From contig JACVGT010000018.1 in NCBI GenBank assembly GCA_018992685.1, positions 160,001-224,000 on the forward strand: a stretch of 64,000 bases of DNA, written 5' to 3'. Below the pieces are notes generated by a model. The model saw only the letters and a list, made by a program, of their open reading frames with translations, ran no database searches and was not told where the DNA came from. The position numbers and the translations under genes are program-made. The stretch comes from Theionarchaea archaeon (GTDB taxonomy: Archaea; Methanobacteriota_B; Thermococci; Methanofastidiosales; SZ-28-30). Shown in pieces: positions 5,332 to 16,934 of this stretch. Each line of letters begins with the position of its first letter. The stretch's first letter is position 1.

Positions 5332-6819
5332 ATGTTAACAGTACAGGATAAAAAAGTATTGCTGGCTTTAGAAGATACTGGTGACATTCAGGGGTTGATA
5401 GAGAAGACACAGCTCCCAGAGGTTGCCATCATGAGGAGTGCCCTCACGCTGCAGGACAACAATCTGGCTGAGATTCATGAGCATACAGAGGCTGTCGTTG
5501 ACCTGACAGAAGAAGGTGAATACCTTTCTCAGGAGCTTCCAGAGCGGAAGATTCTCAACCTATTCAAAGAACCTGACACACTGGATGTGGAAGATATCTC
5601 AATAGACCCGTCAGAGGTAACTATTGCCCTGGGCTGGCTCAAGAGAAAAGGACTCATTGACATTCTGAAAAAGGACACATCCCTCACTCTGAAGATCACT
5701 GAAAGAGGAAGAGAATACCAGAAGATGAAGCTACCCGAAGAAGAAGCCCTGGACAAGATACGATCAGGAATGGGAGGAGACACACTTTCTCCTGAAATCC
5801 TCAAGACGTTGAAATCCAGGAAAGCAGTCACCATCAGGGAGAAGACACAGAGAAAGATCATCCTGACTGAAAAAGGAGCCCAGAAAATCAGAGAAGGCCT
5901 TGAATTGACAGAGCAAATCTCACAGGTTACACCTGAGGTGCTCCGGGAAAGAAAGTGGACCACCATTGGGTTCAGACCCTATGACATTACAGCAGACGTG
6001 AGAGATATCCCGTACGGCAAGAGGCATTTTGTCAATCGGGCCATAGAATACGTGCGGAAGATCTGGTTGGAGATGGGGTTCAAGGAAATGAAAGGGCCCT
6101 TGGTGTCCTCGGCATTCTGGAACTTTGACGCCCTCTTTCAACCCCAGGATCATCCCGCCCGAGACATGCAGGACACCTTCTTCGTGGCAGGAAAAGCCGA
6201 TCTACCTGAAAATTCTCTGGTGGAAAGAGTGAAAGCCATGCATGAGCATGGAGGAGACATCTCTTCAACAGGGTGGAAATACCAATGGGATAAAAAAGAG
6301 GCACAGAAACTTGTGCTCAGAACGCATACCACCGTGCTATCTGCCAGGACGCTGGCTGAAATCAAGAAGAGCGATTTGCCTTTGAAGTTCTTCTCCGTGG
6401 GGAAAGTCTTCAGGAATGAGAAACCTGACTGGAACCACCTTGCAGAGTTTTACCAGACAGATGGAATTGTGGTGGGAGAAGGTGTCAACCTGAGAAACCT
6501 CCTGGGGTATCTGGCACGGTTCCTGCAAAAGATGGGAATACAGAACTTCAGGTTCAGGCCAGCCTACTTCCCCTATACTGAACCCTCGGTGGAAGCAGAA
6601 GTGTACAATTCCCGCACCAAAGAGTGGGTGGAACTAATAGGATCTGGAGTGTTCAGACCGGAAGTGGTGGTTCCTCTCTTGGGAGAAGACATCCCTGTGC
6701 TGGCATGGGGACCTGGATTCGGAAGAATCATCATGGACTACTACAGAATAACGTATTTGAGGGATCTGTACAGAAACGATCTCAGGCAGATTAGAGACCT
6801 GGAATTGTGGATGTGGTGA
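5332..6819 (+). CDS. pheS: Phenylalanine--tRNA ligase alpha subunit (archaeal type)
   Basis: FWNFDALFQPQDHPARDMQDTF, LRTHTT, FRNE and YFPYTEPS motifs; archaeal N-terminal extension. Confidence 0.98.
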   Translation: MLTVQDKKVLLALEDTGDIQGLIEKTQLPEVAIMRSALTLQDNNLAEIHEHTEAVVDLTEEGEYLSQELPERKILNLFKEPDTLDVEDISIDPSEVTIALGWLKRKGLIDILKKDTSLTLKITERGREYQKMKLPEEEALDKIRSGMGGDTLSPEILKTLKSRKAVTIREKTQRKIILTEKGAQKIREGLELTEQISQVTPEVLRERKWTTIGFRPYDITADVRDIPYGKRHFVNRAIEYVRKIWLEMGFKEMKGPLVSSAFWNFDALFQPQDHPARDMQDTFFVAGKADLPENSLVERVKAMHEHGGDISSTGWKYQWDKKEAQKLVLRTHTTVLSARTLAEIKKSDLPLKFFSVGKVFRNEKPDWNHLAEFYQTDGIVVGEGVNLRNLLGYLARFLQKMGIQNFRFRPAYFPYTEPSVEAEVYNSRTKEWVELIGSGVFRPEVVVPLLGEDIPVLAWGPGFGRIIMDYYRITYLRDLYRNDLRQIRDLELWMW

Positions 6820-6820
6820 A

Positions 6821-8482
6821 ATGCCTCTCATAACACTTGATAAACAGGATGTGCTTCAGCTTCTGGGAAAGACCGTATCGGATGATGATCTGGCCTACAA
6901 CATCTCCATGATGGGTACAGACCTGAGACAGGTGAAAGACACAATTGAGGTTGAAGTCTTCCCTGATCGACCTGACATGCTGTCCACGGAAGGATTCGTC
7001 ATGGCACTGGAGGGGTACCTTGGTATCAGGACAGGACTTCCAGACTTTCATGCTGCCGGCCCCAGCAATGCGAACGAATCTGAGTACTCTGCATATATTG
7101 ATGAGAAAGTGGCTACTGTGAGGCCCTATGCAGTGTGTGCTGCAATCAGGGACGTACATCTGTCTGATGGGGCAGTGAAGTCGCTGATGCAGGTTCAGGA
7201 GAAGCTGCACATAACTCACGGACGAAACAGAAAGAAGGTGGCCATAGGAGTGCACGACCTGGACAAGATAGCATTTCCCGTTACCTATACAACCCGTCCT
7301 CTGAATTTCGCGTTTGTCCCCCTGGAATGGTATACTGAATTGACCTTGAAGGAGATTCTAACCAAACACAAGAAAGGGATTGAATTCGCTCACCTGCTCG
7401 AAACCTACGCAGAATATCCTCTGTGGATTGATAAGAAGGGAACTGTCTTATCCATGCCCCCTATTATTAACTCTGAAGATACCAAAGTTGAAGAGGATAC
7501 TGAGAACCTCTTTCTGGATGTTACCGGGTACTCCCGGCTGGCTTTAGAACAGGCTCTGAACATACTGGTATGCAGTCTTGCAAGGCGGGGCGGAACCATT
7601 CACCCAGTACACGTCCATGAACAGGAAAAAGAACTCTGGTATCCTCACCTGACTCCCCAGGAAATGGAGGTTGATCTAGACTATGTCAACAGATGGCTGG
7701 GCCTCAGTCTATCCTGGGACCAGGTAAAGGGATATCTTGAACGGATGCGGTATTCACTGAAAGGACACATAGCAATGATACCACCCTACAGGGCAGACAT
7801 TCTTCACCCTGTGGATATCATAGAAGACATTGCCAAAGCCTATTGCCTAGACAAAATGGAACCTGTCATCCCAAAAGTTTCAACCATCGGTGAAGAGGAC
7901 CCTCTGGAGGTGTTTGTGAGAAAGGTTGCCTACTTGATGGTTGGATTCGGCCTGCTGGAAGTGAAGAACTATTACCTCACTTCACGGGAGTTCTTTTTGA
8001 AGACCCGGATTGGTGATGACGTTGTGGAAGTGGTAAATGCAATTACAGCTGAATACAATGTCTTGCGATCCTGGCTCCTCCCTGAGATGCTGTACACCCT
8101 CTCATCCAACAAACACCATGAATACCCGCAGAATATCTTTGAAGTGGGAGAGGTGGTGAAACCCTCTTCAAAAGCCCAGGAACGCACCAGAGAGGAATAT
8201 CATCTCGCTGTAGTGCTGTGCCATCCCAGAGCATCCTTCACCGAAGCAAAGGAAATCCTCAAAGCATTTACAAAGAATGTGCGAAACCCCTTCACTCTTG
8301 ATGTCACTGAACATCCTGCCTTTATTGAAGGACGATGCGGATCCATTATCATGGGAGAAAAAGTGGGAGTAATTGGTGAGGTAGCCCCTGAGGTCCTGCT
8401 GGCATGGGGCCTGGAAGTTCCTGCTGCATGTTTTGAGCTCGATCTGGGGAAGGTGCTTTCTGAGGTGACAGCAGTCACCTGA
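6821..8482 (+). CDS. pheT: Phenylalanine--tRNA ligase beta subunit (archaeal type)
   Basis: DRPDMLS, QEKLH..GRNRKKVAIGVHD, SMPPIINS and PPYRADILHPVDIIED; directly follows pheS. Confidence 0.97.
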   Translation: MPLITLDKQDVLQLLGKTVSDDDLAYNISMMGTDLRQVKDTIEVEVFPDRPDMLSTEGFVMALEGYLGIRTGLPDFHAAGPSNANESEYSAYIDEKVATVRPYAVCAAIRDVHLSDGAVKSLMQVQEKLHITHGRNRKKVAIGVHDLDKIAFPVTYTTRPLNFAFVPLEWYTELTLKEILTKHKKGIEFAHLLETYAEYPLWIDKKGTVLSMPPIINSEDTKVEEDTENLFLDVTGYSRLALEQALNILVCSLARRGGTIHPVHVHEQEKELWYPHLTPQEMEVDLDYVNRWLGLSLSWDQVKGYLERMRYSLKGHIAMIPPYRADILHPVDIIEDIAKAYCLDKMEPVIPKVSTIGEEDPLEVFVRKVAYLMVGFGLLEVKNYYLTSREFFLKTRIGDDVVEVVNAITAEYNVLRSWLLPEMLYTLSSNKHHEYPQNIFEVGEVVKPSSKAQERTREEYHLAVVLCHPRASFTEAKEILKAFTKNVRNPFTLDVTEHPAFIEGRCGSIIMGEKVGVIGEVAPEVLLAWGLEVPAACFELDLGKVLSEVTAVT

Positions 8483-8957
8483 TTCTGGTGCCACAGAATC
8501 GGCAGAACTTGGCCGTGGGTTCTAACTCCTTGCCACACTTCTTGCAGGACAGAGATTCCTGAGGTACACGTGAGGAGATCAGTCCTTTCAATTTGTTGAA
8601 GGTGGGTTCATCAATTTCTCCCTGGGCCAGAGAGAGCCTAAGCTTCTGGAATGCTTCTTCTTCAGGCAAAGACAGAATTTCTTCTGTGAGAGATTTCTGA
8701 GCTGTGTGAGGGGAATCAGGGGACTCAACTCTTTCAGGTTCTTTACGCTCAACAGATTCCTCCCTGGATTCACCCGAACCCGTGCGGAACGCATCAATTT
8801 TCTCTGCGAGAATTTTTCTCACTTCAGTGGAAAACATGTCGGAGACAGCAGGGCGTATTTTGTCAGATACCTCCTCGATCAGTTTTTTCCTGACCTCGGC
8901 CTCCAGCAAATTCATGAACTCAGGGAGTTCAATCTCAATACACGTAGGTTCAGCCAT
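8475..8957 (-). CDS. SHOCT-like plus C-terminal zinc-ribbon protein
   Basis: LRLSLAQGEIDEPTFNKLK (SHOCT-like) and CKKCG...FCRFCG zinc ribbon. Confidence 0.75.
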   Translation of the reverse strand: MAEPTCIEIELPEFMNLLEAEVRKKLIEEVSDKIRPAVSDMFSTEVRKILAEKIDAFRTGSGESREESVERKEPERVESPDSPHTAQKSLTEEILSLPEEEAFQKLRLSLAQGEIDEPTFNKLKGLISSRVPQESLSCKKCGKELEPTAKFCRFCGTRIR

Positions 8958-9145
8958 GATGTCACTGCATGGCACAGGATAAAAACCTTTCGTAGGAACG
9001 AAGAAGGCACATATTGCTCAGAAATCAGCAAAATCGTTCAGTTGGAACCAGAAAGGAGATCAGCTGTTGTACGTATGCCTCCTGTATCATGACTGTCCTC
9101 TCAGGTTCATGACGCTGGCTACTTCATTAGCCCAACTCCTACCCA

Positions 9146-9202
9146 AAGCTTTATATAGTTTAACAATTATCACATAATAAATATCACATAATAATCGTGA
9201 TA
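9146..9202 (+). promoter_or_regulatory. BRE/TATA promoter with repeated operator-like sites for the 9.2-13.9 kb operon
   Basis: AAAGCTTTATATAG followed by TATCACATAATAA twice (9168-9180, 9182-9194) and the inverted pair TATCAC/GTGATA (9182-9187, 9197-9202). Confidence 0.6.
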
Positions 9203-9487
9203 CAACAAATGACAGAGAAGGTTGAACGAGAGATGAAGATGACTACCGCTGACGTTAAGGCTCTTCCCTACGAAATCAAGCGAAATCCTACGGCTCTGCT
9301 GATTCTGCTTTATTTGGCCGAGAATGGTGGGGCCAACTCAATCTGTTTTATTGCAGGTGAAATCGGATTCACGGAAGCAGCTGTTTCAAAAAGCGCCGAA
9401 AGACTACTAAAATATGATTTGATAGAGAAATCATATGGCAAAAGTGATTTAGGCAAAAGGAAGACTTTGATCAGACTGAAAAAGTAA
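9197..9487 (+). CDS. Winged-helix transcriptional regulator (MarR/ArsR-like)
   Basis: IAGEIGFTEAAVSKSAERLLKYDLIEK HTH-wing pattern. Confidence 0.8.
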   Translation: MIQQMTEKVEREMKMTTADVKALPYEIKRNPTALLILLYLAENGGANSICFIAGEIGFTEAAVSKSAERLLKYDLIEKSYGKSDLGKRKTLIRLKK

Positions 9488-9511
9488 GAATTAGTAATAT
9501 GAGGTGATAAT

Positions 9512-10585
9512 GTGATTGTAGCAATCTTGGGAGCTGGTAATGGAGGTCAGGCTCTGGCCGGATACCTCTCCCTAAAAGGATTTTCCGTAAACCTATTCAA
9601 TCGGAGTGAGAAGAGAATCAGACACATTAAGAATGATGCAGGTGTTCATATACAGGGGCTTTTTGAGGAATTTGCCCCTCTAAATATCGTTACGACTGAC
9701 ATCAAGAAAGCACTTTCTGATGCTGACCTGGTCATGGTCGTGGTACCTGCTCAGGCGCACAAGCATGTTGCAGAAATCTGTGCTCCTCATCTGGAGGACG
9801 GCCAGGTTGTTGTTCTCAGCCCTGGACGTACGGGGGGCGCTTTAGAATTCAAGAAGACGCTGGATAAGAATGGGTTCTCAAAGAGAATATACCTTGCAGA
9901 AACTCAAACCTTTTTGTTCGTGAGCCGTGTGGTGAACAACAAGGCTAGAATCACAGGCACCAAGAACTCAGTTCCTGTGGCAGCTTTCCCCGCTTCAGAC
10001 ACGGACAGGGTGATGAGTATGTTGAGACAGGTTCATCCTTCTTTCGAGAAGGCAGAGAACGTGATGGAAACAAGTCTAGCCAACATAGGGGCCATTTTCC
10101 ATCCCTCGACTATGATTCTTAACATGGGCAGAATCGAATCAAGCCAAGATTTCAGCTACTATTTTGATGGGATTACGCCTTATGTGGCACGGTTTCTTGA
10201 GCGGATCGATAAGGAGAGGCAGCGGGTTGCTCGAGCTATCGGAGTTCAGACACTGTCTGCACGCCAGTGGCTGAAGAGAGTTTACAACGCTCAGGGAGAG
10301 ACCTTGTTTGAACGCATCCAGGACAATGGAAAATATCGAGGAGTAGGGTCTCCACAAACCCCGATGCATCGATACATCATGGAAGACATACCCACAGGGC
10401 TGGTGCCCATTGCATCACTTGGTAATCATCTGGGAGTACACGCCCCGGCAATTGACAGTGTCATTGGGATCGCCACCCATCTATATGGGATTGATTTTGA
10501 AGCAAAGGGAAGGACAGTCGAGAGCCTGGGTCTCGAAGGAATGAATAGCCGGCGGATGATAGAATACGTGACAAGAGGTGCATAG
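9512..10585 (+). CDS. NAD(P)-dependent opine (octopine/nopaline) dehydrogenase family protein
   Basis: ILGAGNGG Rossmann motif, PGRTGGALEF, LANIGAIFHP, IDKERQRVA and RYIMEDIPTGLVP. Confidence 0.9.
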   Translation: MIVAILGAGNGGQALAGYLSLKGFSVNLFNRSEKRIRHIKNDAGVHIQGLFEEFAPLNIVTTDIKKALSDADLVMVVVPAQAHKHVAEICAPHLEDGQVVVLSPGRTGGALEFKKTLDKNGFSKRIYLAETQTFLFVSRVVNNKARITGTKNSVPVAAFPASDTDRVMSMLRQVHPSFEKAENVMETSLANIGAIFHPSTMILNMGRIESSQDFSYYFDGITPYVARFLERIDKERQRVARAIGVQTLSARQWLKRVYNAQGETLFERIQDNGKYRGVGSPQTPMHRYIMEDIPTGLVPIASLGNHLGVHAPAIDSVIGIATHLYGIDFEAKGRTVESLGLEGMNSRRMIEYVTRGA

Positions 10586-10586
10586 C

Positions 10587-12227
10587 ATGAGAAAGAGACT
10601 ACTTGGGGCGTCAATTGGAAGTTGCATTCATGTGGCAGGGGTTTTGAATTTTTTAGACCTTGCTGAAAAGCTAGGATATCAAACAAAATATATGGGACCC
10701 GCGGTTCGTGTTGAAGATCTCGTTGACGAGATCTTAGAATCTGATCCTGACATCATTGGGGTCTCGTATCGCCTGACCCCAGAGAATGCACAGGTGCTGT
10801 TTGAAGAATTGAAGAGAAGGATAGTGCAGTACAATATACAGAACAAGAGATGGATATTCGGGGGGACCAGACCAGTGTGTATTGTTGCTGAACGCTCGGG
10901 ACTTTTTGAAAGAGCCTTTGACGGGCTATCTACCATGGAGGACGCTATTTCATACTTAAAGTGCCAGGAAGTAACCCAGGAACAAGAGTACTATCCCCAG
11001 ACATTGATTGAACGTGTTTTTCTCAAGAAACCCTTTCCCATTCTACGGCACCACTTTGGATTACCCTCGCTGGAAGAAACGATTGACGGTATTCAGACGA
11101 TTGCTGAAGCTCAGGTGGTGGATGTAATCAGCATTGCTCCTGACCAGAATGCGCAGGAGAGCCTATTCCGTCCGGAAGAGATGACAGAAGAAACAGGTTC
11201 TGGAGGCGTTCCCTTCCGCAGTAAGGAAGATCTTGCGAGGATGTACAGGGCTTCCAGACGGGGGAACTACCCCCTCTTGCGATGCTATAGCGGGACGCGG
11301 GACCTGGTCAAGATGTCAGAGCTTCTCAAGGAATCGATCAACAATGCATGGACTGCCACTCCTTTGACCTGGTACAGTGTACTGGACGGAAGAAGTTGCA
11401 GGCCTTTGAAGGAAGCCATTTCCGAGAATCAGAAGAATATGACGTGGAATGCAGAAAGAGGAATTCCTGTGGAGGTTAATGAAGCCCATCAGTGGTCACT
11501 GAGAAACGCTCATGATGCTCTGGCTGTTGTCATGGCCTACCTTGCTGCCTACAACGCAAAGAAGATGGGTGTATCAACCTATGTGGCGCAATACATGTTC
11601 AACACGCCCCTGGGGACATCTCCTTTGATGGATGTGGCCAAGATGCTTGCCAAGATTGAACTGATCGAATCTCTACACGATCAAACGTTCACTTCGCTTC
11701 GACAGGTGCGGGTGGCTGGACTGCTGAGTTATCCTGTGGACACAGACTCTGCCATAGGGCAGCTCGCCTCTGCAGTCAATATAGGAATGAGCATTCACCC
11801 TGATATTGTACATGCTGTATCATACAGTGAAGCAGATCATGCAGCAACCTCTGAGGACGTTATCAGGACTTCGAAGATTGCAAAACGTGTTATCCAGAAC
11901 TGTCTCATGGGCATGCCCGATGCAGCGTCTGACCCCAGAGTGATTCAGAGAAAGAACCAGTTGGTAGAGGAAGCTCAGATCCTCCTTAATGCCATCAGGA
12001 CTCTGGGGGACAGTGTCAGAGAATCGTTCACTGATCCACGGGTTCTGGAGGAAGCTGTGAGAAGTGGGCTGCTCGATGCTCCTCAGTTGAAAGGCAATCC
12101 CGTTGCTAAAGGTGAAATCGAAACACAGATGGTCAATGGGGCATGCTATGCCGTGAATGGGGATCAAATCATGACAGAATGGGAGCGAACAGAAAGACTG
12201 ATGGAGGATGTTATTCGTGAATATTAA
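10587..12227 (+). CDS. Cobalamin-binding-domain protein with large C-terminal catalytic domain (mutase-like, function unknown)
   Basis: N-terminal CIHVAG...GVSYRL...FGG (DxHxxG/SxL/GG B12 signature); no CxxxCxxC radical-SAM motif; GAGGTG SD before ATG 10587. Confidence 0.8.
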   Translation: MRKRLLGASIGSCIHVAGVLNFLDLAEKLGYQTKYMGPAVRVEDLVDEILESDPDIIGVSYRLTPENAQVLFEELKRRIVQYNIQNKRWIFGGTRPVCIVAERSGLFERAFDGLSTMEDAISYLKCQEVTQEQEYYPQTLIERVFLKKPFPILRHHFGLPSLEETIDGIQTIAEAQVVDVISIAPDQNAQESLFRPEEMTEETGSGGVPFRSKEDLARMYRASRRGNYPLLRCYSGTRDLVKMSELLKESINNAWTATPLTWYSVLDGRSCRPLKEAISENQKNMTWNAERGIPVEVNEAHQWSLRNAHDALAVVMAYLAAYNAKKMGVSTYVAQYMFNTPLGTSPLMDVAKMLAKIELIESLHDQTFTSLRQVRVAGLLSYPVDTDSAIGQLASAVNIGMSIHPDIVHAVSYSEADHAATSEDVIRTSKIAKRVIQNCLMGMPDAASDPRVIQRKNQLVEEAQILLNAIRTLGDSVRESFTDPRVLEEAVRSGLLDAPQLKGNPVAKGEIETQMVNGACYAVNGDQIMTEWERTERLMEDVIREY

Positions 12228-12993
12228 TGCAGAATTACTGAAAGAACACCTGATTGACTTTATCAGTGGCGAAGTGGCCAAATCTCCCTTCGACAAGGTT
12301 GTTATCGGTATTTCGGGAGGGATCGATTCTGCTGTGGTTGCATACTTGGCCGCTGAAGCCTTGGGAAAAAGGAATGTCATTGGAATCTTAATGCCGTACA
12401 GGACAATGTCTGAAGAGAACAAAGAGGATGCGTCAGCTGTTATTGACGATCTGGGAATACCTTATGTTGAGGTGGATATTTCTCCCATGGTGGACGCTTT
12501 CAAAGTCCTGGTAGATGACACCGACAAGAGACGACTTGGGAGCAAAATGGTCAGAGAACGTATGAGCATTCTGTACTACTATGCAGACAGGTATAAGGCT
12601 GCAGTCTTGGGAACTAGCAACAAGTCTGAAGACCTCTTGGGATATTTCACCAATCATGGAGATTCTGCCTGGGATATTAACCCAATCTCGGGATTATTCA
12701 AGACTCAGGTTATCATGCTAGGTCTGGAACTGGGAGTTCCTGAACGTATTGTGGAGAAGAAGTCAACTGCTGATTTCTGGGTCGGTCAGACAGATGAGGA
12801 GGAATTCGGATTCACCTATTTCGAAGCCGACACCATACTGCATCAGATTGAGAAAGGATATTCCGCAGAAGACCTGGTAGACATAGGACTTGATGAACAG
12901 GTAGTCAGGAAGGTTCTTGAAAGAGTGGATAAAACTGCCCACAAGAGAGTTCCTCCTTCGATACCACAATTGCCTCGTGAGGTACTCAGATGA
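12208..12993 (+). CDS. nadE: NH3-dependent NAD+ synthetase family protein (divergent)
   Basis: ISGGIDS PP-loop, GTSNKSE..LGYFT, GQTDEEE and HKR; start may be GTG 12217. Confidence 0.8.
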   Translation: MLFVNINAELLKEHLIDFISGEVAKSPFDKVVIGISGGIDSAVVAYLAAEALGKRNVIGILMPYRTMSEENKEDASAVIDDLGIPYVEVDISPMVDAFKVLVDDTDKRRLGSKMVRERMSILYYYADRYKAAVLGTSNKSEDLLGYFTNHGDSAWDINPISGLFKTQVIMLGLELGVPERIVEKKSTADFWVGQTDEEEFGFTYFEADTILHQIEKGYSAEDLVDIGLDEQVVRKVLERVDKTAHKRVPPSIPQLPREVLR

Positions 12994-13940
12994 AGGTCGG
13001 AATTGTGTACAGCCAGAGGTGCATAGAACGATTGGAGAAAAAAATCTATGCTGATCACCCCGAAATGAAGGGAAGAACACTCCAGGCTATCTACAGGGCG
13101 CTGGACGACGTGTCCGAGCCAGAGTTCATAAACGAAGATGGAGCTATTATCCCTGCTTTGAGGAGGATGGATGCAGTATTCAACTTGAGCACAGGTTTGA
13201 GAGGAGAAAGCAGGCAGGCACACATTCCAGCCCTTCTGGAACGACTGGAAATACCCTATACGGGATCAGGAGTCCTGACGCATGCGATGGGGCTGAACAA
13301 GCCGAAATCTAAGGAAGTTTTCATAGCCAATGGTGTCCCAACCCCTCCCTTCGAGATTCTGGATACCCTTCAGATAACCCGTAAGGATCTTGATGGCATA
13401 GATTTCCCAATGGTGTTGAAACCCACGAATGGAGGTTCCAGCCGAGGCGTAAGAATAGCGGACTCCCTTACCCAGTTGAAAAAGGCGGTCAGAGAGGCTA
13501 TTCCCAAGTACGGCAGAGTGATGATTGAGCCTTTCGTCGAGGGAAGGGAACTAACAGTGGGGATTCTGGGAAATGAATCACCAGACGTACTTCCCATTTT
13601 GGAAACTGATTTTGAAGATCTTGATACAGTCGTTTACAATTTTGAAGTGAAAGCACGCATCGGGTATACCACAGAACATACATTCCCGGCTCAATTGACT
13701 CCTCAAGAGAGAGAAACAGTGTGTCAGGTGGCGATGAAGGCATACAGAGCGCTCCTCTGCAGGGATTATGCCCGTGTCGACATCCGGTTAGAGGACGGCG
13801 TCCCGTACGTACTTGAGATTAACACGCTTCCTGGACTCTACGTTGACTACAGTGCGATCCCCACCATGGCCCGAGTACGGGGATTGCCCTTTGAAACACT
13901 CATCAGAAGAATATACTTGTATGCTATGGAGCGCGAATGA
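12990..13940 (+). CDS. D-Ala-D-Ala ligase-like ATP-grasp peptide ligase
   Basis: IPYTGSG, LKPTNGGSSRGV, EPFVEGRELTVG, YARVDIRL and LEINTLPG; ATGA overlap with nadE. Confidence 0.88.
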   Translation: MKVGIVYSQRCIERLEKKIYADHPEMKGRTLQAIYRALDDVSEPEFINEDGAIIPALRRMDAVFNLSTGLRGESRQAHIPALLERLEIPYTGSGVLTHAMGLNKPKSKEVFIANGVPTPPFEILDTLQITRKDLDGIDFPMVLKPTNGGSSRGVRIADSLTQLKKAVREAIPKYGRVMIEPFVEGRELTVGILGNESPDVLPILETDFEDLDTVVYNFEVKARIGYTTEHTFPAQLTPQERETVCQVAMKAYRALLCRDYARVDIRLEDGVPYVLEINTLPGLYVDYSAIPTMARVRGLPFETLIRRIYLYAMERE

Positions 13941-14153
13941 CCTGAGTTCTCGCTCGAGGAACAATGCCAACCAGAGAGTGTCACACAAGTCCTGAGTTCT
14001 CTGGCTGCTTGTTCTCACCTGTACAAAGTTAAAACCCTGAAACCAGTCTTCTTCTTGAGGTCAGACTCATGGTTGTGACGGAGATAGTCTCCTGCACTCG
14101 GCAATTTCGTGTCGCCAAACAGGATCTGAGGTAATGTACCATTCTGGTGTCGT

Positions 14154-14786
14154 CTACGCCAATTTTCTGGCCTTCGAGACCCTGAATACGTCAGCATTAC
14201 ATCCTTGGGCTCTGCACTCAATTTCCTCCACTGTATGAGGATGACCTGTGATCCACTCCACCAATCCATAGAGAAGTCCAGCATAGATATTGCATACAGG
14301 AGACTGGGAGACTAATCCTTCGCTTTCGGTGCTGCTCTTTTCGATGATCAGAAAGTGATCTTCTTCCTCCCTGACCTCAATGCGCGGCCTGTGTTCAGAG
14401 GGCAATCTTTTCTCTGATTCTTCTGCGTATTTTTCCAGAGCAAGACGCATTCTTCTGTTCTCTGGCAGAAGGTGTGATGCTGCAAGAAGTGCTTTTGCCA
14501 TTGTACCTGCCTCCACGACTCCTACCCGCACAAATTCGCGGCCAGCTCTGAACTGGAGGGCGCGAGCACCCTTCTCACCAAACAGCTCAGTCAGGCCTGC
14601 TACTAGGCTCCGAACGTCCTGCAGAGGGATTTCTATGCCATCATTCTGGGGAGGCAATTCCTCAATGTATTTCTGCAGGCGGGCGAAGTTAAGAATCGAT
14701 TTCAGTCCGCCTGGGCCAACAGTATTCTCCAATGTCTCTAGGAAGATTCTCATTGTGAGATTGTCCATTTTTCGCTCATCAGACAT
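14154..14786 (-). CDS. V4R (4-vinyl-reductase) domain protein
   Basis: C-terminal PVCNIYAGLLYGLVEW...VEEIECRAQGCNADVF. Confidence 0.8.
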   Translation of the reverse strand: MSDERKMDNLTMRIFLETLENTVGPGGLKSILNFARLQKYIEELPPQNDGIEIPLQDVRSLVAGLTELFGEKGARALQFRAGREFVRVGVVEAGTMAKALLAASHLLPENRRMRLALEKYAEESEKRLPSEHRPRIEVREEEDHFLIIEKSSTESEGLVSQSPVCNIYAGLLYGLVEWITGHPHTVEEIECRAQGCNADVFRVSKARKLA

Positions 14787-15300: not shown

Positions 15301-15740
15301 ACTTCCTACCTATGCTCTCATTGTATATGAATCCTGTTTTTCGTTATTCAAGCAACTTTTCCAACCTTTTTCTGCAGAGATACGTATGTCACTTCATATC
15401 AATGGTAGAGCCAACTCTATCACAATACAGGCAAACTAAGCTCAGCATTTGAACGTGTCAGTTACATCATCAATTGCCTGAACATACTGTGATTTCACAC
15501 TTCCTTGTTCAAATGGAGTTGAAAGGTGAGAGACATCCATGTAAAATGAAGATTCCAAAATGCTGAAACAGAACCCTGGTAAGCTCTCATGGCGGCAAAA
15601 TGGCACATATTAGTGAGATCGAAAAGCCAGATGTCTACGAAAGGGCAACAGCCAGTATTGGCACACGACTGGTAGACAAGTCATGAAGGGTATCATTTAA
15701 ATTGTGGCGATCAATAGTCAAGCTGTTAGGAGGTCTAACT

Positions 15741-16934
15741 ATGTGGTATTTCTACTCGCCGATCGTGGTTTTCGGGGAAGATGCCCTGGATCACCTGGAA
15801 ACCATTGAAGGAAAAAGATGCTTTATAGTGACAGACCCAGGTATCAAGAGCCTGGGATTGCTGGAAATCCTCACCAGAAAATTGGAACGATTGGGAAGGA
15901 GCTGGGAAGTCTTTTCTGATGTTGAACCTGATCCCAGAGAAGAGACTGTGTATAGAGCTGCTGAGCAATGCAAAAAATATAATCCAGATCTCATCATTGG
16001 AATTGGAGGAGGTTCGTCGCTTGATGCAGCAAAAGGTGTCTGGGTCTTATATGAACATCCAGAATTCAAGAGTGTGGACGAGATCCATCCTTTTCAGAAT
16101 TTGAATACTGGGAAGAAAGCCCGGTTGATCGCGATTCCTACGACCTCGGGAACAGGTGCTGAAACAACGTGGGCTGTGGTCATTACCAGAACCAAAGAAG
16201 GGAAAACCCTGAAACTTGAGCAGGGAAACAAAGGAGTTATCCCCACGTATGCTGTGGTTGACCCTGTTTTCACCAAGGGAATGCCTCCAGGCCTGACAGC
16301 TGGAACAGGGTTTGATGCGCTGGCCCACAGTATGGAGTGCTTGATATCCACCTGGCAGAACATGTTTTCGGATGCCTTGGCCATTGGAGCTATCCGTCTC
16401 ATTCTTGAGTATCTACCGCTGGCGGTGAAAGATGGAGATAATATGAAAGCTCGAGAAGCACTGCATAATGCAGCCAGCATGGGGGGACTGGCATTCGGAA
16501 ACGCACAGGTGACATTGGGGCACGCCATGGCTCATGCTCTGGGCGCTGTTTTTCATATTCCTCACGGCACTGCGGTGGGGTTGTGTCTGCCCTATGCCAT
16601 GGAATACTGCATTCACGATCCTGAAAGTGACAGCTCAATTGAGAAACTTGCCCTGACTGCAAAATCAGTGGGGGTTGCTCAATGGTCAGATGACAATTCT
16701 GGAGCTGCCGAGAAGCTCGTGGAGAAGGTGAAGTGGCTGCAGAAAGAGACGGGACTACCCGTCTCGTTGCAGGCCTTGGATGTCTCGAGGGAAGATTTGG
16801 ATGAGAACCTGGATACCCTCATCACCCTGTGTATGGAATCAGCCAGTACCGTGATGACTCCTCGGAATATTGGCGTCTCGGAATTTAGGAAGCTCTTTGA
16901 CTATATGTACTCTGGAAGGAAAGTCGACTTCTGA
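15741..16934 (+). CDS. Iron-containing alcohol dehydrogenase
   Basis: GIGGGSSLDAAK, IPTTSGTGAE, DALAHSME and GHAMAH..HG; AGGAGGT SD. Confidence 0.93.
   Translation: MWYFYSPIVVFGEDALDHLETIEGKRCFIVTDPGIKSLGLLEILTRKLERLGRSWEVFSDVEPDPREETVYRAAEQCKKYNPDLIIGIGGGSSLDAAKGVWVLYEHPEFKSVDEIHPFQNLNTGKKARLIAIPTTSGTGAETTWAVVITRTKEGKTLKLEQGNKGVIPTYAVVDPVFTKGMPPGLTAGTGFDALAHSMECLISTWQNMFSDALAIGAIRLILEYLPLAVKDGDNMKAREALHNAASMGGLAFGNAQVTLGHAMAHALGAVFHIPHGTAVGLCLPYAMEYCIHDPESDSSIEKLALTAKSVGVAQWSDDNSGAAEKLVEKVKWLQKETGLPVSLQALDVSREDLDENLDTLITLCMESASTVMTPRNIGVSEFRKLFDYMYSGRKVDF

Follow-up and report, generated by a model that had tools for sequence, protein, structure and literature searches.

What would an archaeon make with a run of genes that brings together an opine dehydrogenase (ODH), a B12-binding protein, a NadE-family enzyme and an ATP-grasp ligase? 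The question is raised by an operon at positions 9197-13940 of the stretch of DNA that we analysed (the window), 64,000 nt of contig JACVGT010000018.1 from a Theionarchaea archaeon. A sequence-only reading of the window had suggested that the operon builds a modified amino acid or opine peptide amide. We found that its conserved core is a two-enzyme ODH–B12 module present in archaea and bacteria, that in many bacteria this module stands behind a riboswitch for cyclic di-AMP (c-di-AMP), and that an ATP-grasp ligase is its recurrent third member. Together, these observations could be explained by a stress-induced pathway that turns an acidic amino acid into an opine-type solute. The genome of the window is referred to as G000 (91% complete) and its sister genome as G001; L-numbers denote comparison loci. 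The five genes are:

9197-9487, + strand: small helix–turn–helix (HTH)-like protein of 96 amino acids (aa), a winged-helix-like regulator with sub-threshold family matches only
9512-10585, + strand: opine dehydrogenase (ODH) of 357 aa; Octopine_DH (PF02317) at 158.1 bits (cut-off 30)
10578-12227, + strand: B12-binding/GlmE-like fusion of 549 aa, a putative adenosylcobalamin (AdoCbl)-dependent mutase (the B12 protein); PF02310 at 34.6 bits (cut-off 32.1)
12208-12993, + strand: NadE of the NH3-type (short) NAD+ synthetase family, 261 aa; NF010587 at 304.9 bits (cut-off 255)
12990-13940, + strand: Ddl-like ATP-grasp ligase of 316 aa; PF07478 at 141.8 bits

The ODH–B12 pair is conserved in archaea and bacteria

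The neighbourhood of the B12 gene was examined in 80 loci from contigs of one genome per species, 34 archaeal and 46 bacterial by record title. An ODH gene adjoined the B12 gene in 73 of these loci, which confirmed the expectation from the sequence alone that the two would be co-conserved. It lay immediately upstream on the same strand in 72 of the 80 (gap between tblastn matches: median 54 nt, maximum 135 nt) and downstream in L083. Four of the seven loci that lacked ODH have at most 200 nt of contig upstream of the B12 gene; the remaining three (L026, L054 and L078) have at least 2.6 kb. When all neighbours were clustered all-against-all, no family besides ODH was found in more than 13 of the 80 loci. 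The range of the pair extends across Asgard and Theionarchaea-type archaea, Bacillota, Armatimonadota and Ignavibacteria. More than 6200 homologues match the B12 protein in length, archaeal and bacterial forms being ∼55% identical, and the protein was present in 19 of 41 genomes related to that of the window and, among 401 genomes sampled from one bacterial phylum, in 77. None of the names given to these homologues is functional: they are 'cobalamin-binding' or mis-transferred labels such as 'methionine synthase'.

The bare gene association is not new. Zhang, Rodionov, Gelfand and Gladyshev (2009; BMC Genomics 10:78, PMC2667541) predicted a new family of B12-dependent proteins in 11 bacterial genomes, always beside an octopine dehydrogenase and with Ddl and asparagine synthase nearby, and the available part of that report proposes no function for it. 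The same part covers no archaea and contains no assignment of the C-terminal fold, no riboswitch link and no NadE. A search of full-text literature, with most subscription journals outside its reach, found no later characterisation of the B12 family and, besides the 2009 report, no paper tying an opine or octopine dehydrogenase to a B12 mutase or to c-di-AMP. Within that literature the earlier statement that no characterised pathway has this gene set stands, with the amendment that the association itself had been predicted. New as far as we searched are the archaeal version with HTH, NadE and ATP-grasp genes, the fold assignment, the link to an ODH subclass, the c-di-AMP control and the co-occurrence data.

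A further neighbour was seen in 13 Thorarchaeota-type loci, in which ODH–B12 adjoins a gene for a TFIIB/TFB-like protein, with a zinc ribbon and cyclin-type repeats by our own reading (cluster c3, e.g. L019:4739-5689). It could be a TFB paralogue dedicated to the operon.

The B12 protein resembles glutamate mutase in fold

The family of the B12 protein is recognisable by sequence mainly at its N-terminus: a PDB sequence search with the family profile matched only the N-terminal ∼130 residues, to corrinoid-binding domains, and the Pfam model Met_asp_mut_E scored 17.7 bits (E 1.4e-3), below its cut-off of 26.6. An AlphaFold2 model from a 20-sequence alignment reached a predicted local distance difference test score (pLDDT) of 84.7 and a predicted template-modelling score (pTM) of 0.83. 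The top Foldseek match of this model was 6h9e_B (E 7.1e-17, template-modelling scores 0.57/0.64, 469 columns, 18% identity) and the second was 1cb7_B (E 1.8e-16, 468-469 columns), both of which are the E chain of glutamate mutase (GlmE). Next came ornithine and lysine aminomutases and methylmalonyl-CoA mutases. Like glutamate mutase, all of these are AdoCbl isomerases. The relation to GlmE emerges by fold and by hhalign only, not in the PDB sequence search.

The hhalign comparison of the B12 family with a true GlmE, that of Tepidanaerobacter acetatoxydans (714 bits to 1cb7_B), covered 335 columns at 60% probability (E 8.5e-5), an alignment that is not secure. In GlmE we take R66/R100/R149 to be the 'arginine claw', with E171, and K326/E330 to be the contacts to the adenosyl ribose (positions confirmed on the 1cb7_B sequence). 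By this low-confidence alignment, R100, E330 and G151/T152/D154 of GlmE have conserved equivalents in R198, E418 and G239/T240/D242 of the B12 protein, and E171 falls near D270/G271. In the B12 domain, His18, Gly21, Ser63 to Leu66 and Gly94-Gly95 are present at the canonical DxHxxG…SxL…GG spacing, with Cys in place of the Asp. The DxHxxG motif is given as a B12-binding motif in PMC2667541.

The B12 protein thus resembles the Clostridium GlmS/GlmE enzyme (MutS/MutE; 1cb7, 6h9e) in its modelled fold and, less securely, in the spacing of the B12 motif and the R100, E330 and G-T-x-D equivalents. It differs in that it is one polypeptide with the B12 domain first, has Cys for the motif Asp and is partnered by ODH. 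The modelled fold suggests that it is probably a GlmS/GlmE-like mutase, fused into one chain and forming a family of its own, acting on a substrate that is related to that of glutamate mutase and probably not identical, and it would presumably depend on AdoCbl. We rejected the possibility that the pair is a plain canonical glutamate mutase, as Met_asp_mut_E is sub-threshold and T. acetatoxydans, which has the ODH–B12 pair, has a canonical glutamate mutase cluster with a true GlmE besides.

Genes for cofactor handling accompany the pair in some loci. A CobA-type ATP:corrinoid adenosyltransferase gene directly precedes the HTH gene in L006 and L007, and a glutamate-mutase-type MutL gene (PF13941, 560 bits) directly precedes the B12 gene in L230. 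In the genome of the window, CobA is encoded away from the operon and a search for MutL found none.

Three open frames of 1232-1245 aa in other genomes (G168:C5:21126-22241, G203:C59:2177-3298 and G127:C156:24447-25565) include a stretch that shares 35-38% identity with residues 107-468 of the B12 protein. These may be large mutase-barrel fusions.

The ODH is predicted to use acidic amino acids

The window ODH aligned with the Arthrobacter ODH (CENDH/ArODH, PDB 1bg6) over residues 3-346 at 258.5 bits (E 8.4e-76). It has the N-terminal dinucleotide-fold motif G7-A-G9-N-G11-G12, and its H197 aligns to the catalytic H202 of ArODH; H197, E291, D292 and W253 were invariant in 22 B12-linked ODHs from archaea and bacteria. 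The features named for ODHs by Telek et al. 2024 (PMC10787698) are of this kind: a GxGxxG/A dinucleotide fold, a catalytic His with an acidic partner and a conserved Trp. Among the same 22 enzymes, R106 and G193 were also invariant and N30-R31 was at least 90% conserved, and these residues correspond to ArODH positions 111, 198 and 34-35.

These positions bear on substrate choice. Telek et al. describe six ODHs from hot springs (mODHs), ∼40% identical to ArODH, whose preferred substrate is L-aspartate, followed by L-glutamate and sulfonate analogues, with pyruvate as the partner and mostly NADPH as the cofactor. According to the available text of PMC10787698, Arg111 and Gly198 (ArODH numbering) set the acidic preference, swapping both residues exchanges specificity either way, and Arg35 accompanies NADPH use. 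The B12-linked ODHs have this Arg111/Gly198/Arg35 signature in common with the mODHs; ArODH, which matches them in the catalytic His, the E-D pair and the Trp, differs in having Ala111/Asn198 and takes hydrophobic amino acids. Based on these residues, the window ODH is predicted to belong to the acidic-amino-acid (mODH-like) subclass. An ODH for acidic amino acids beside a glutamate-mutase-like enzyme makes a coherent pair.

A c-di-AMP riboswitch precedes the pair in many bacteria

All 46 bacterial loci were scanned with Rfam at the gathering threshold. The c-di-AMP riboswitch RF00379 (84-118 bits) was found upstream, on the coding strand, in 21 of them or, when only loci with ODH upstream of B12 and 400 nt or more of preceding sequence are counted, in 21 of 40. 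In 19 loci it lay within ∼350 nt of the ODH match; in L066 it was 725 nt upstream, and in L024 it preceded an AsnB-like→ODH→B12 operon. Beyond the 46 loci, RF00379 was found in L137, L150 and L152, in the order riboswitch→ATP-grasp→ODH→B12, and the operon of L230 reads RF00379→ODH→ATP-grasp→4HBT thioesterase→MutL→B12. Altogether, riboswitch-led operons contain an ATP-grasp gene in L074, L137, L150, L152 and L230, and an AsnB-like gene in L024, L045, L047 and L064.

Riboswitches for c-di-AMP are OFF switches of osmotic-shock and cell-wall genes (PMC9337991), and the bacterial operon would accordingly be shut off by c-di-AMP. An operon that is off in the presence of c-di-AMP would belong to an osmotic or envelope stress response. 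The available text of PMC9337991 also places two osmolyte genes, ablA (for beta-lysine) and eam (for beta-glutamate), under Na+ or c-di-AMP riboswitches. The likeness to the ODH–B12 operon is that an amino-acid isomerase comes first and that a c-di-AMP OFF riboswitch controls it; ablA and eam systems, however, use radical S-adenosylmethionine (SAM) 2,3-aminomutases and acetyltransferases, in contrast to the B12 carbon-skeleton-mutase-like enzyme and ODH found here (PMC9337991). The idea that the product is an osmolyte, one of several offered from the sequence alone, gains support from these riboswitches.

A different riboswitch was seen in L068 (Desantisbacteria), one of the loci with no RF00379. 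An nhaA-I match lies before ODH–B12 (6775-6828) and a second (11468-11520) lies before an AsnB-like gene three genes downstream. The nhaA-I class is a Li+ class with rare Na+-responsive variants (PMC9646797), and, judged from the available text of that paper, its association with ODH–B12 and AsnB-like genes is unusual for the class.

A regulator gene and tandem repeats may replace the riboswitch in the archaeon

Two elements lie upstream of the first gene of the window operon:

9145-9158, + strand: archaeal TFB-recognition element (BRE)/TATA-like element AAAGCTTTATATAG, read from the sequence and of putative function
9168-9180 and 9182-9194, + strand: exact 13-nt direct repeats TATCACATAATAA in two copies, downstream of the TATA box and ahead of the first start codon

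The BRE/TATA block AAAGCTTT(A/T)TATAGTTTAA was identical in four of four aligned Theionarchaea-type loci (the window, L005, L006 and L007), and the A/T-rich block downstream of TATA, including variants of the TATCACATAATAA repeat, was partially conserved in L005-L007. Across the whole window, TATCACATAATAA with at most two mismatches occurred three times against 1.43 expected, and 19 of 100 shuffles reached three, so this count is not significant alone. The evidence for the repeats is therefore the two exact copies 14 nt apart between TATA and start codon, not the window-wide count. The HTH protein matched known families below threshold only (MarR at 19.6 bits against a cut-off of 24.6, together with Lrs14 and Csa3-HTH), and homologues with 70-79% identity hold the same position in L005, L006 and L007. 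From their sequence and placement, the tandem repeats are a candidate operator for the HTH protein. A diadenylate cyclase is encoded in the genome of the window, and the HTH protein with its repeats is a likely substitute for the riboswitch in this archaeon.

By longest open reading frames, a 24-nt gap separates HTH from ODH, and the following junctions overlap by 8 nt (ODH/B12), 20 nt (B12/NadE) and 4 nt (NadE/ATP-grasp). With the shorter starts of database copies (B12 protein 546 aa, NadE 258 aa), the genes still abut or overlap. A convergent gene on the opposite strand (14154-14786) comes next after ATP-grasp. The open reading frames, overlaps and exact repeats therefore bear out the description of five co-oriented, abutting genes with repeated operator-like sites; the single promoter that had been part of that description, and with it a single transcript, are suggested by the gene spacing.

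An ATP-grasp ligase is the recurrent third member

The window ATP-grasp matches PF07478 and misses the NCBIfam Ddl models (NF002378, 195.4 against 243 bits; TIGR01205, 181.5 against 245.65 bits), all other Ddl/Van models being far under their cut-offs. No Dala_Dala_lig_N was found among its Pfam matches at E ≤ 0.01. Within the 41 related genomes, the subfamily occurs in two, that of the window and its sister. A housekeeping Ddl was therefore rejected, given the sub-threshold Ddl scores and this narrow distribution, and the protein is classed by its sequence as a Ddl-like ligase, not a bona fide D-Ala-D-Ala ligase.

The reading from sequence alone had asked whether NadE and ATP-grasp genes travel with the ODH–B12 pair. 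The ATP-grasp gene recurs with the pair. In the sample of 401 genomes from one bacterial phylum, 11 have a close homologue (E ≤ 1e-70 to P0130) and all 11 are among the 77 with the B12 family; related genomes are not independent, and no P-value is given. At least five bacterial loci, with three different gene orders among them, also have the ATP-grasp gene within a riboswitch-led ODH–B12 operon. Among the 80 B12-centred loci, it follows the B12 gene in L005, which is a 66,636-nt contig of G001, and in L074; four Tepidanaerobacter-type loci have a longer ATP-grasp, 29-30% identical and on the opposite strand, that is probably a real Ddl. A scan of metagenome contigs with the ATP-grasp alignment yielded another 80 bacterial loci (33-44% identity); the close archaeal relatives (56-80% identity) were not among them. 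In this set, a KamA-like radical-SAM aminomutase stood alongside in 32 loci, ODH–B12 in four and NadE in none. No riboswitch was found by Rfam near the stand-alone ATP-grasp homologues L123-L125, at six KamA-type loci, or at the NadE–ATP-grasp cassettes L228 and L229. In conclusion, ATP-grasp is a recurrent third member of the module and, more generally, a partner of amino-acid isomerases.

The KamA association itself forms a recurrent cassette, in which a KamA-family 2,3-aminomutase stands beside Ddl-like ATP-grasps, often two in tandem (32 of the 80 metagenome loci, within L141-L195, e.g. L143:7017-9997); Wukongibacter (L123) has a version with one ATP-grasp. This arrangement suggests an uncharacterised pathway to beta-amino-acid peptides. 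In the T. acetatoxydans genome, a CRISPR array of 34 repeats (RF01315, L125:4788-7025) is located just upstream of the gene for the stand-alone ATP-grasp homologue, at a distance of ∼5 kb from the canonical MutL/GlmE cluster.

AsnB-like enzymes occupy the slot of NadE elsewhere

An enzyme that adenylates a carboxylate and forms an amide had been proposed as part of the set, and this expectation was borne out in a different guise: such an enzyme is often found in the slot after B12, with an AsnB-like gene near the pair in 13 of the 80 loci. Two of the 13 (L028 and L049) encode a canonical AsnB of 613 aa and are separated from the pair by other genes. The other 11 encode short forms and in most cases immediately follow the B12 gene; they come from Thorarchaeota, Theionarchaea-type, Thermoanaerobacter/Caldanaerobacter, Ignavibacteria-type, Armatimonadota and Desantisbacteria loci. 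In seven of these 11, the N-terminal nucleophile Cys of the glutaminase is replaced by Pro, Ser or Thr; it is kept in L047 and L064, and the start is uncertain in the remaining two. The archaeal and Ignavibacteria-type forms score under the AsnB cut-offs. In L006 and L007 the operon order is CobA, HTH, ODH, B12, a D-glutamate-cyclase-like gene (PF14336) and AsnB-like. The slot held by NadE and ATP-grasp in the window is thus held there by two other amide-forming enzymes.

A comparable logic is known from the osmolyte N-acetylglutaminylglutamine amide (NAGGN), which is made by the ATP-grasp-containing Ngg and the amidotransferase AsnO. Both systems combine an ATP-grasp ligase with an AsnB-family amidotransferase and, if our reading is correct, would lead from glutamate-family amino acids to a neutral osmolyte. 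However, the AsnB-like neighbours match TIGR03104 weakly (127-141 bits, far under its cut-off of 570), no GNAT domain is present here, and NAGGN synthesis involves neither mutase nor ODH.

A proposed pathway and the points against it

We propose that the mutase would rearrange glutamate or a close acidic analogue into 3-methylaspartate or a similar product, and that the ODH would join an acidic amino acid to pyruvate with NAD(P)H to give an N-(1-carboxyethyl) tricarboxylate. Alternatively, the mutase might act on the opine itself. The accessory amide-bond enzymes, namely the Ddl-like ATP-grasp and an AsnB-like enzyme (mostly without the glutaminase Cys) or, in this lineage, the NadE-family enzyme, may then extend or neutralise the product of ODH and mutase. 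In the archaeon, the small HTH protein and a tandem-repeat operator would act in place of the riboswitch. The likeliest product would be a compatible solute or K+ counter-ion from the glutamate/aspartate pool. We infer the substrate of the glutamate/aspartate family, the reductive condensation with pyruvate, the further amide formation and the stress role. An earlier parallel with PylB/PylC/PylD holds as an analogy only: there too a mutase is followed by a Ddl-type ATP-grasp and then a dehydrogenase, but PylB is a radical SAM enzyme and PylD belongs to another dehydrogenase family than the window enzyme.

For the whole chain, a stress-induced pathway from an acidic amino acid to an opine-type solute that is then ligated or amidated, we consider the case evenly balanced. 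Our confidence is higher in two of its parts, the mutase-plus-opine core and the membership of ATP-grasp. That the product serves as an osmolyte falls slightly short of an even chance, and we lean somewhat against a part for NadE in the pathway. The fullest version seems unlikely as a whole: a new AdoCbl-dependent, c-di-AMP-controlled solute pathway, common to Bacillota, Armatimonadota, Theionarchaea-type and Asgard archaea, that makes N-(1-carboxyethyl) derivatives of Glu, Asp or 3-methylaspartate, optionally ligated, amidated or cyclised, with a NadE-family enzyme recruited here for amidation. If this version is true, an osmolyte would for the first time be seen to be made with the help of B12, and opines of acidic amino acids would gain their first physiological role in prokaryotes. 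If the proposed stress-induced pathway is right, it would provide a new AdoCbl-dependent reaction and a physiological role for acidic-amino-acid ODHs, so far studied as biocatalysts, and the ability of sediment and thermophilic anaerobes, Asgard archaea among them, to tolerate stress would be tied to the cobamide that they can obtain. Taken together, the fold, the ODH signature, the riboswitches and the recurrent ATP-grasp and AsnB-like partners make of the orphan B12 family, without an assigned function since 2009, a testable hypothesis with named substrates, cofactors and inducing condition.

Several points weigh against this pathway. The order of its steps is a guess, and the substrates, products and cofactors of all members are those that we infer. 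In the B12 protein, Cys (Cys16) takes the place of the DxHxxG Asp, as it does in at least 90% of the family. By the 60%-probability hhalign, R149, K326 and R66 of GlmE correspond to Tyr237, Val414 and His159; as these residues are not conserved, the substrate may not be glutamate. Arg residues do occur nearby in this low-confidence alignment (R235, two residues before Y237, and R157, two before H159). For the mODHs, a kcat of ∼1 s-1 and a Km of 0.5-25 mM for L-Asp are reported (PMC10787698), which suggests that L-Asp is perhaps not the native substrate and that a better one, e.g. 3-methylaspartate, is possible. The main text of that paper is silent on gene context, cobalamin and methylaspartate, and the mODHs may not be B12-linked enzymes. 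The ATP-grasp subfamily is partnered more often with the KamA-like aminomutase than with ODH–B12 in the metagenome loci (32 against four of 80).

The regulatory evidence has its own exceptions. Of the 40 bacterial loci with at least 400 nt upstream, 19 gave no RF00379 match in the Rfam scan, including all six Halanaerobiales as well as Paramaledivibacter, Wukongibacter, Formimonas, Thermaerobacter and Ignavibacteria-type loci. Rfam found no riboswitch in the archaeal loci L005, L006, L007 and L126 either, and the leader of the window itself was read, not scanned with Rfam. Moreover, cell-wall genes too belong to c-di-AMP regulons, cell-wall remodelling genes being likewise under these riboswitches (PMC9337991).

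Is the operon a mixture assembled by accretion?

The alternative that survives best, which we nevertheless regard as improbable, is that the operon grew by accretion: ODH–B12 with the HTH gene would be the functional unit, NadE would be the ordinary NAD synthetase, and ATP-grasp would have arrived with a laterally acquired NadE→ATP-grasp cassette and have a function of its own. Its strength lies in NadE. This protein exceeds the equivalog cut-off (NF010587, and TIGR00552 at 238.3 against 63.65 bits), has the PP-loop SGGIDS, is the sole NadE of its genome and coexists with NadC, all of which fits a plain housekeeping enzyme. Because NadC is encoded, amidation of nicotinic acid adenine dinucleotide is a step that the archaeon needs. 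A search of its 91%-complete assembly with the long NadE of the sister genome found the operon NadE alone; a second PF02540 match (C8) was rejected as another NadE, as it is GuaA. Two observations speak instead for a pathway role: the sister genome keeps a long NadE (NF010588, 627 bits; G001:C67, L127:1135-2715) besides its operon copy, and a long glutamine-dependent NadE is used by relatives in families f1/f2, to which NadE matches of 515-562 aa point in six genomes other than the sister. The NadE of the window probably took over NAD synthesis. The sequence-only reading had treated a NadE that was the only housekeeping copy of its genome, together with a purely catabolic ODH–B12 pair, as a reason to reject the pathway. 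A sole copy is indeed what the window genome has, which goes part of the way; the second NadE of the sister genome and the three of two Bacillota genomes, G046 and G410, point the other way. The lack of a long NF010588-type NadE in the window genome could itself mean that the short operon NadE has replaced it or that the assembly is incomplete there.

The distribution of NadE also favours accretion. It lies beside the pair in only one of the 80 B12-centred loci (L005), and among the 41 relatives both NadE and ATP-grasp are confined to the window genome and its sister; the expectation that NadE would travel with the pair thus fails outside this lineage. Homologues of the B12 protein, NadE and ATP-grasp (71, 66 and 56% identity) on contigs of one length, 58005 nt, hint that another archaeal lineage may keep all three genes; a similar hint from contigs of 58017 nt was borne out through G046. 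The closest bacterial homologues of NadE (52-53% identity) and ATP-grasp (41-43%) are adjacent and in the same order in the related Bacillota genomes G046 and G410, with no ODH–B12 within ±10 kb, so NadE→ATP-grasp is a transferable cassette, and L006 and L007 have their D-glutamate-cyclase-like and AsnB-like genes in that position. However, all 11 genomes with the ATP-grasp subfamily have the B12 family too, and the ligase gene sits within riboswitch-led ODH–B12 operons. B12-family genes are present at other sites in G046 and G410 themselves, each of which has three full-length NadE genes, the cassette copy included. The 20-nt and 4-nt overlaps in the window argue in the same direction.

In two related Bacillota genomes the cassette has further members (L228:8924-14583 and L229:5629-11155), where NadE→ATP-grasp is followed by a threonine-synthase-like pyridoxal phosphate enzyme (506-585 aa) and a Gate-domain membrane protein.

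Catabolism and envelope modification are less probable

Quite unlikely, in our view, is a catabolic module in which ODH would work oxidatively on imported opines or glycation products, or Glu/Asp would be fermented via the mutase, with NadE and ATP-grasp unrelated. ODHs work reversibly, and AdoCbl mutases are characteristic of the fermentation of amino acids; the hosts, judged by locus names, are anaerobic peptide and amino-acid fermenters, and the clustered neighbours include no recurrent biosynthetic exporter or transporter. Yet they include no co-conserved uptake system either, and a c-di-AMP OFF riboswitch in 21 of 46 bacterial loci marks osmotic or envelope genes and not operons for catabolism. 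Furthermore, T. acetatoxydans has its separate canonical cluster for the catabolic glutamate mutase, and ATP-consuming amide-forming enzymes recur in the operon.

Least probable of the three is envelope modification, with a non-canonical amino acid or dipeptide entering peptidoglycan or a surface polymer and the Ddl-like and AsnB/NadE-like proteins as cross-bridge and amidation enzymes: wall genes share the c-di-AMP control, Ddl-like and AsnB-like proteins are classic wall enzymes, a divergent MurJ gene adjoins the NadE–ATP-grasp cassette in G046 and G410 (a further point against the proposed pathway) and cluster c19 (six loci, mainly Thermoanaerobacter-type) resembles a D-Ala-D-Ala carboxypeptidase by our own sequence reading, but the pair is present in 29 archaeal loci of Thorarchaeota and Theionarchaea types, archaea not known to us to make murein, the MurJ adjacency is limited to one bacterial lineage with two related genomes, and wall-type neighbours are not conserved across phyla.

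Surroundings of the operon

The closest relatives of the window proteins bear the names Theionarchaea and Methanofastidiosia. Upstream of the operon lie the alpha and beta subunits of an archaeal phenylalanyl-tRNA synthetase (5332-8482) and a zinc-ribbon protein (8475-8975, - strand). Downstream are a V4R-domain protein, which is the convergent gene at 14154-14786 (- strand), and an iron-containing alcohol dehydrogenase (15702-16934). We saw nothing that ties these flanking genes to the operon. At least half of the sampled words of positions 9100-14000 are contained in sequencing runs of five studies, possible source runs excluded, and the labels of these runs are marine sediment, sediment, one coded organism and one plain 'metagenome'.

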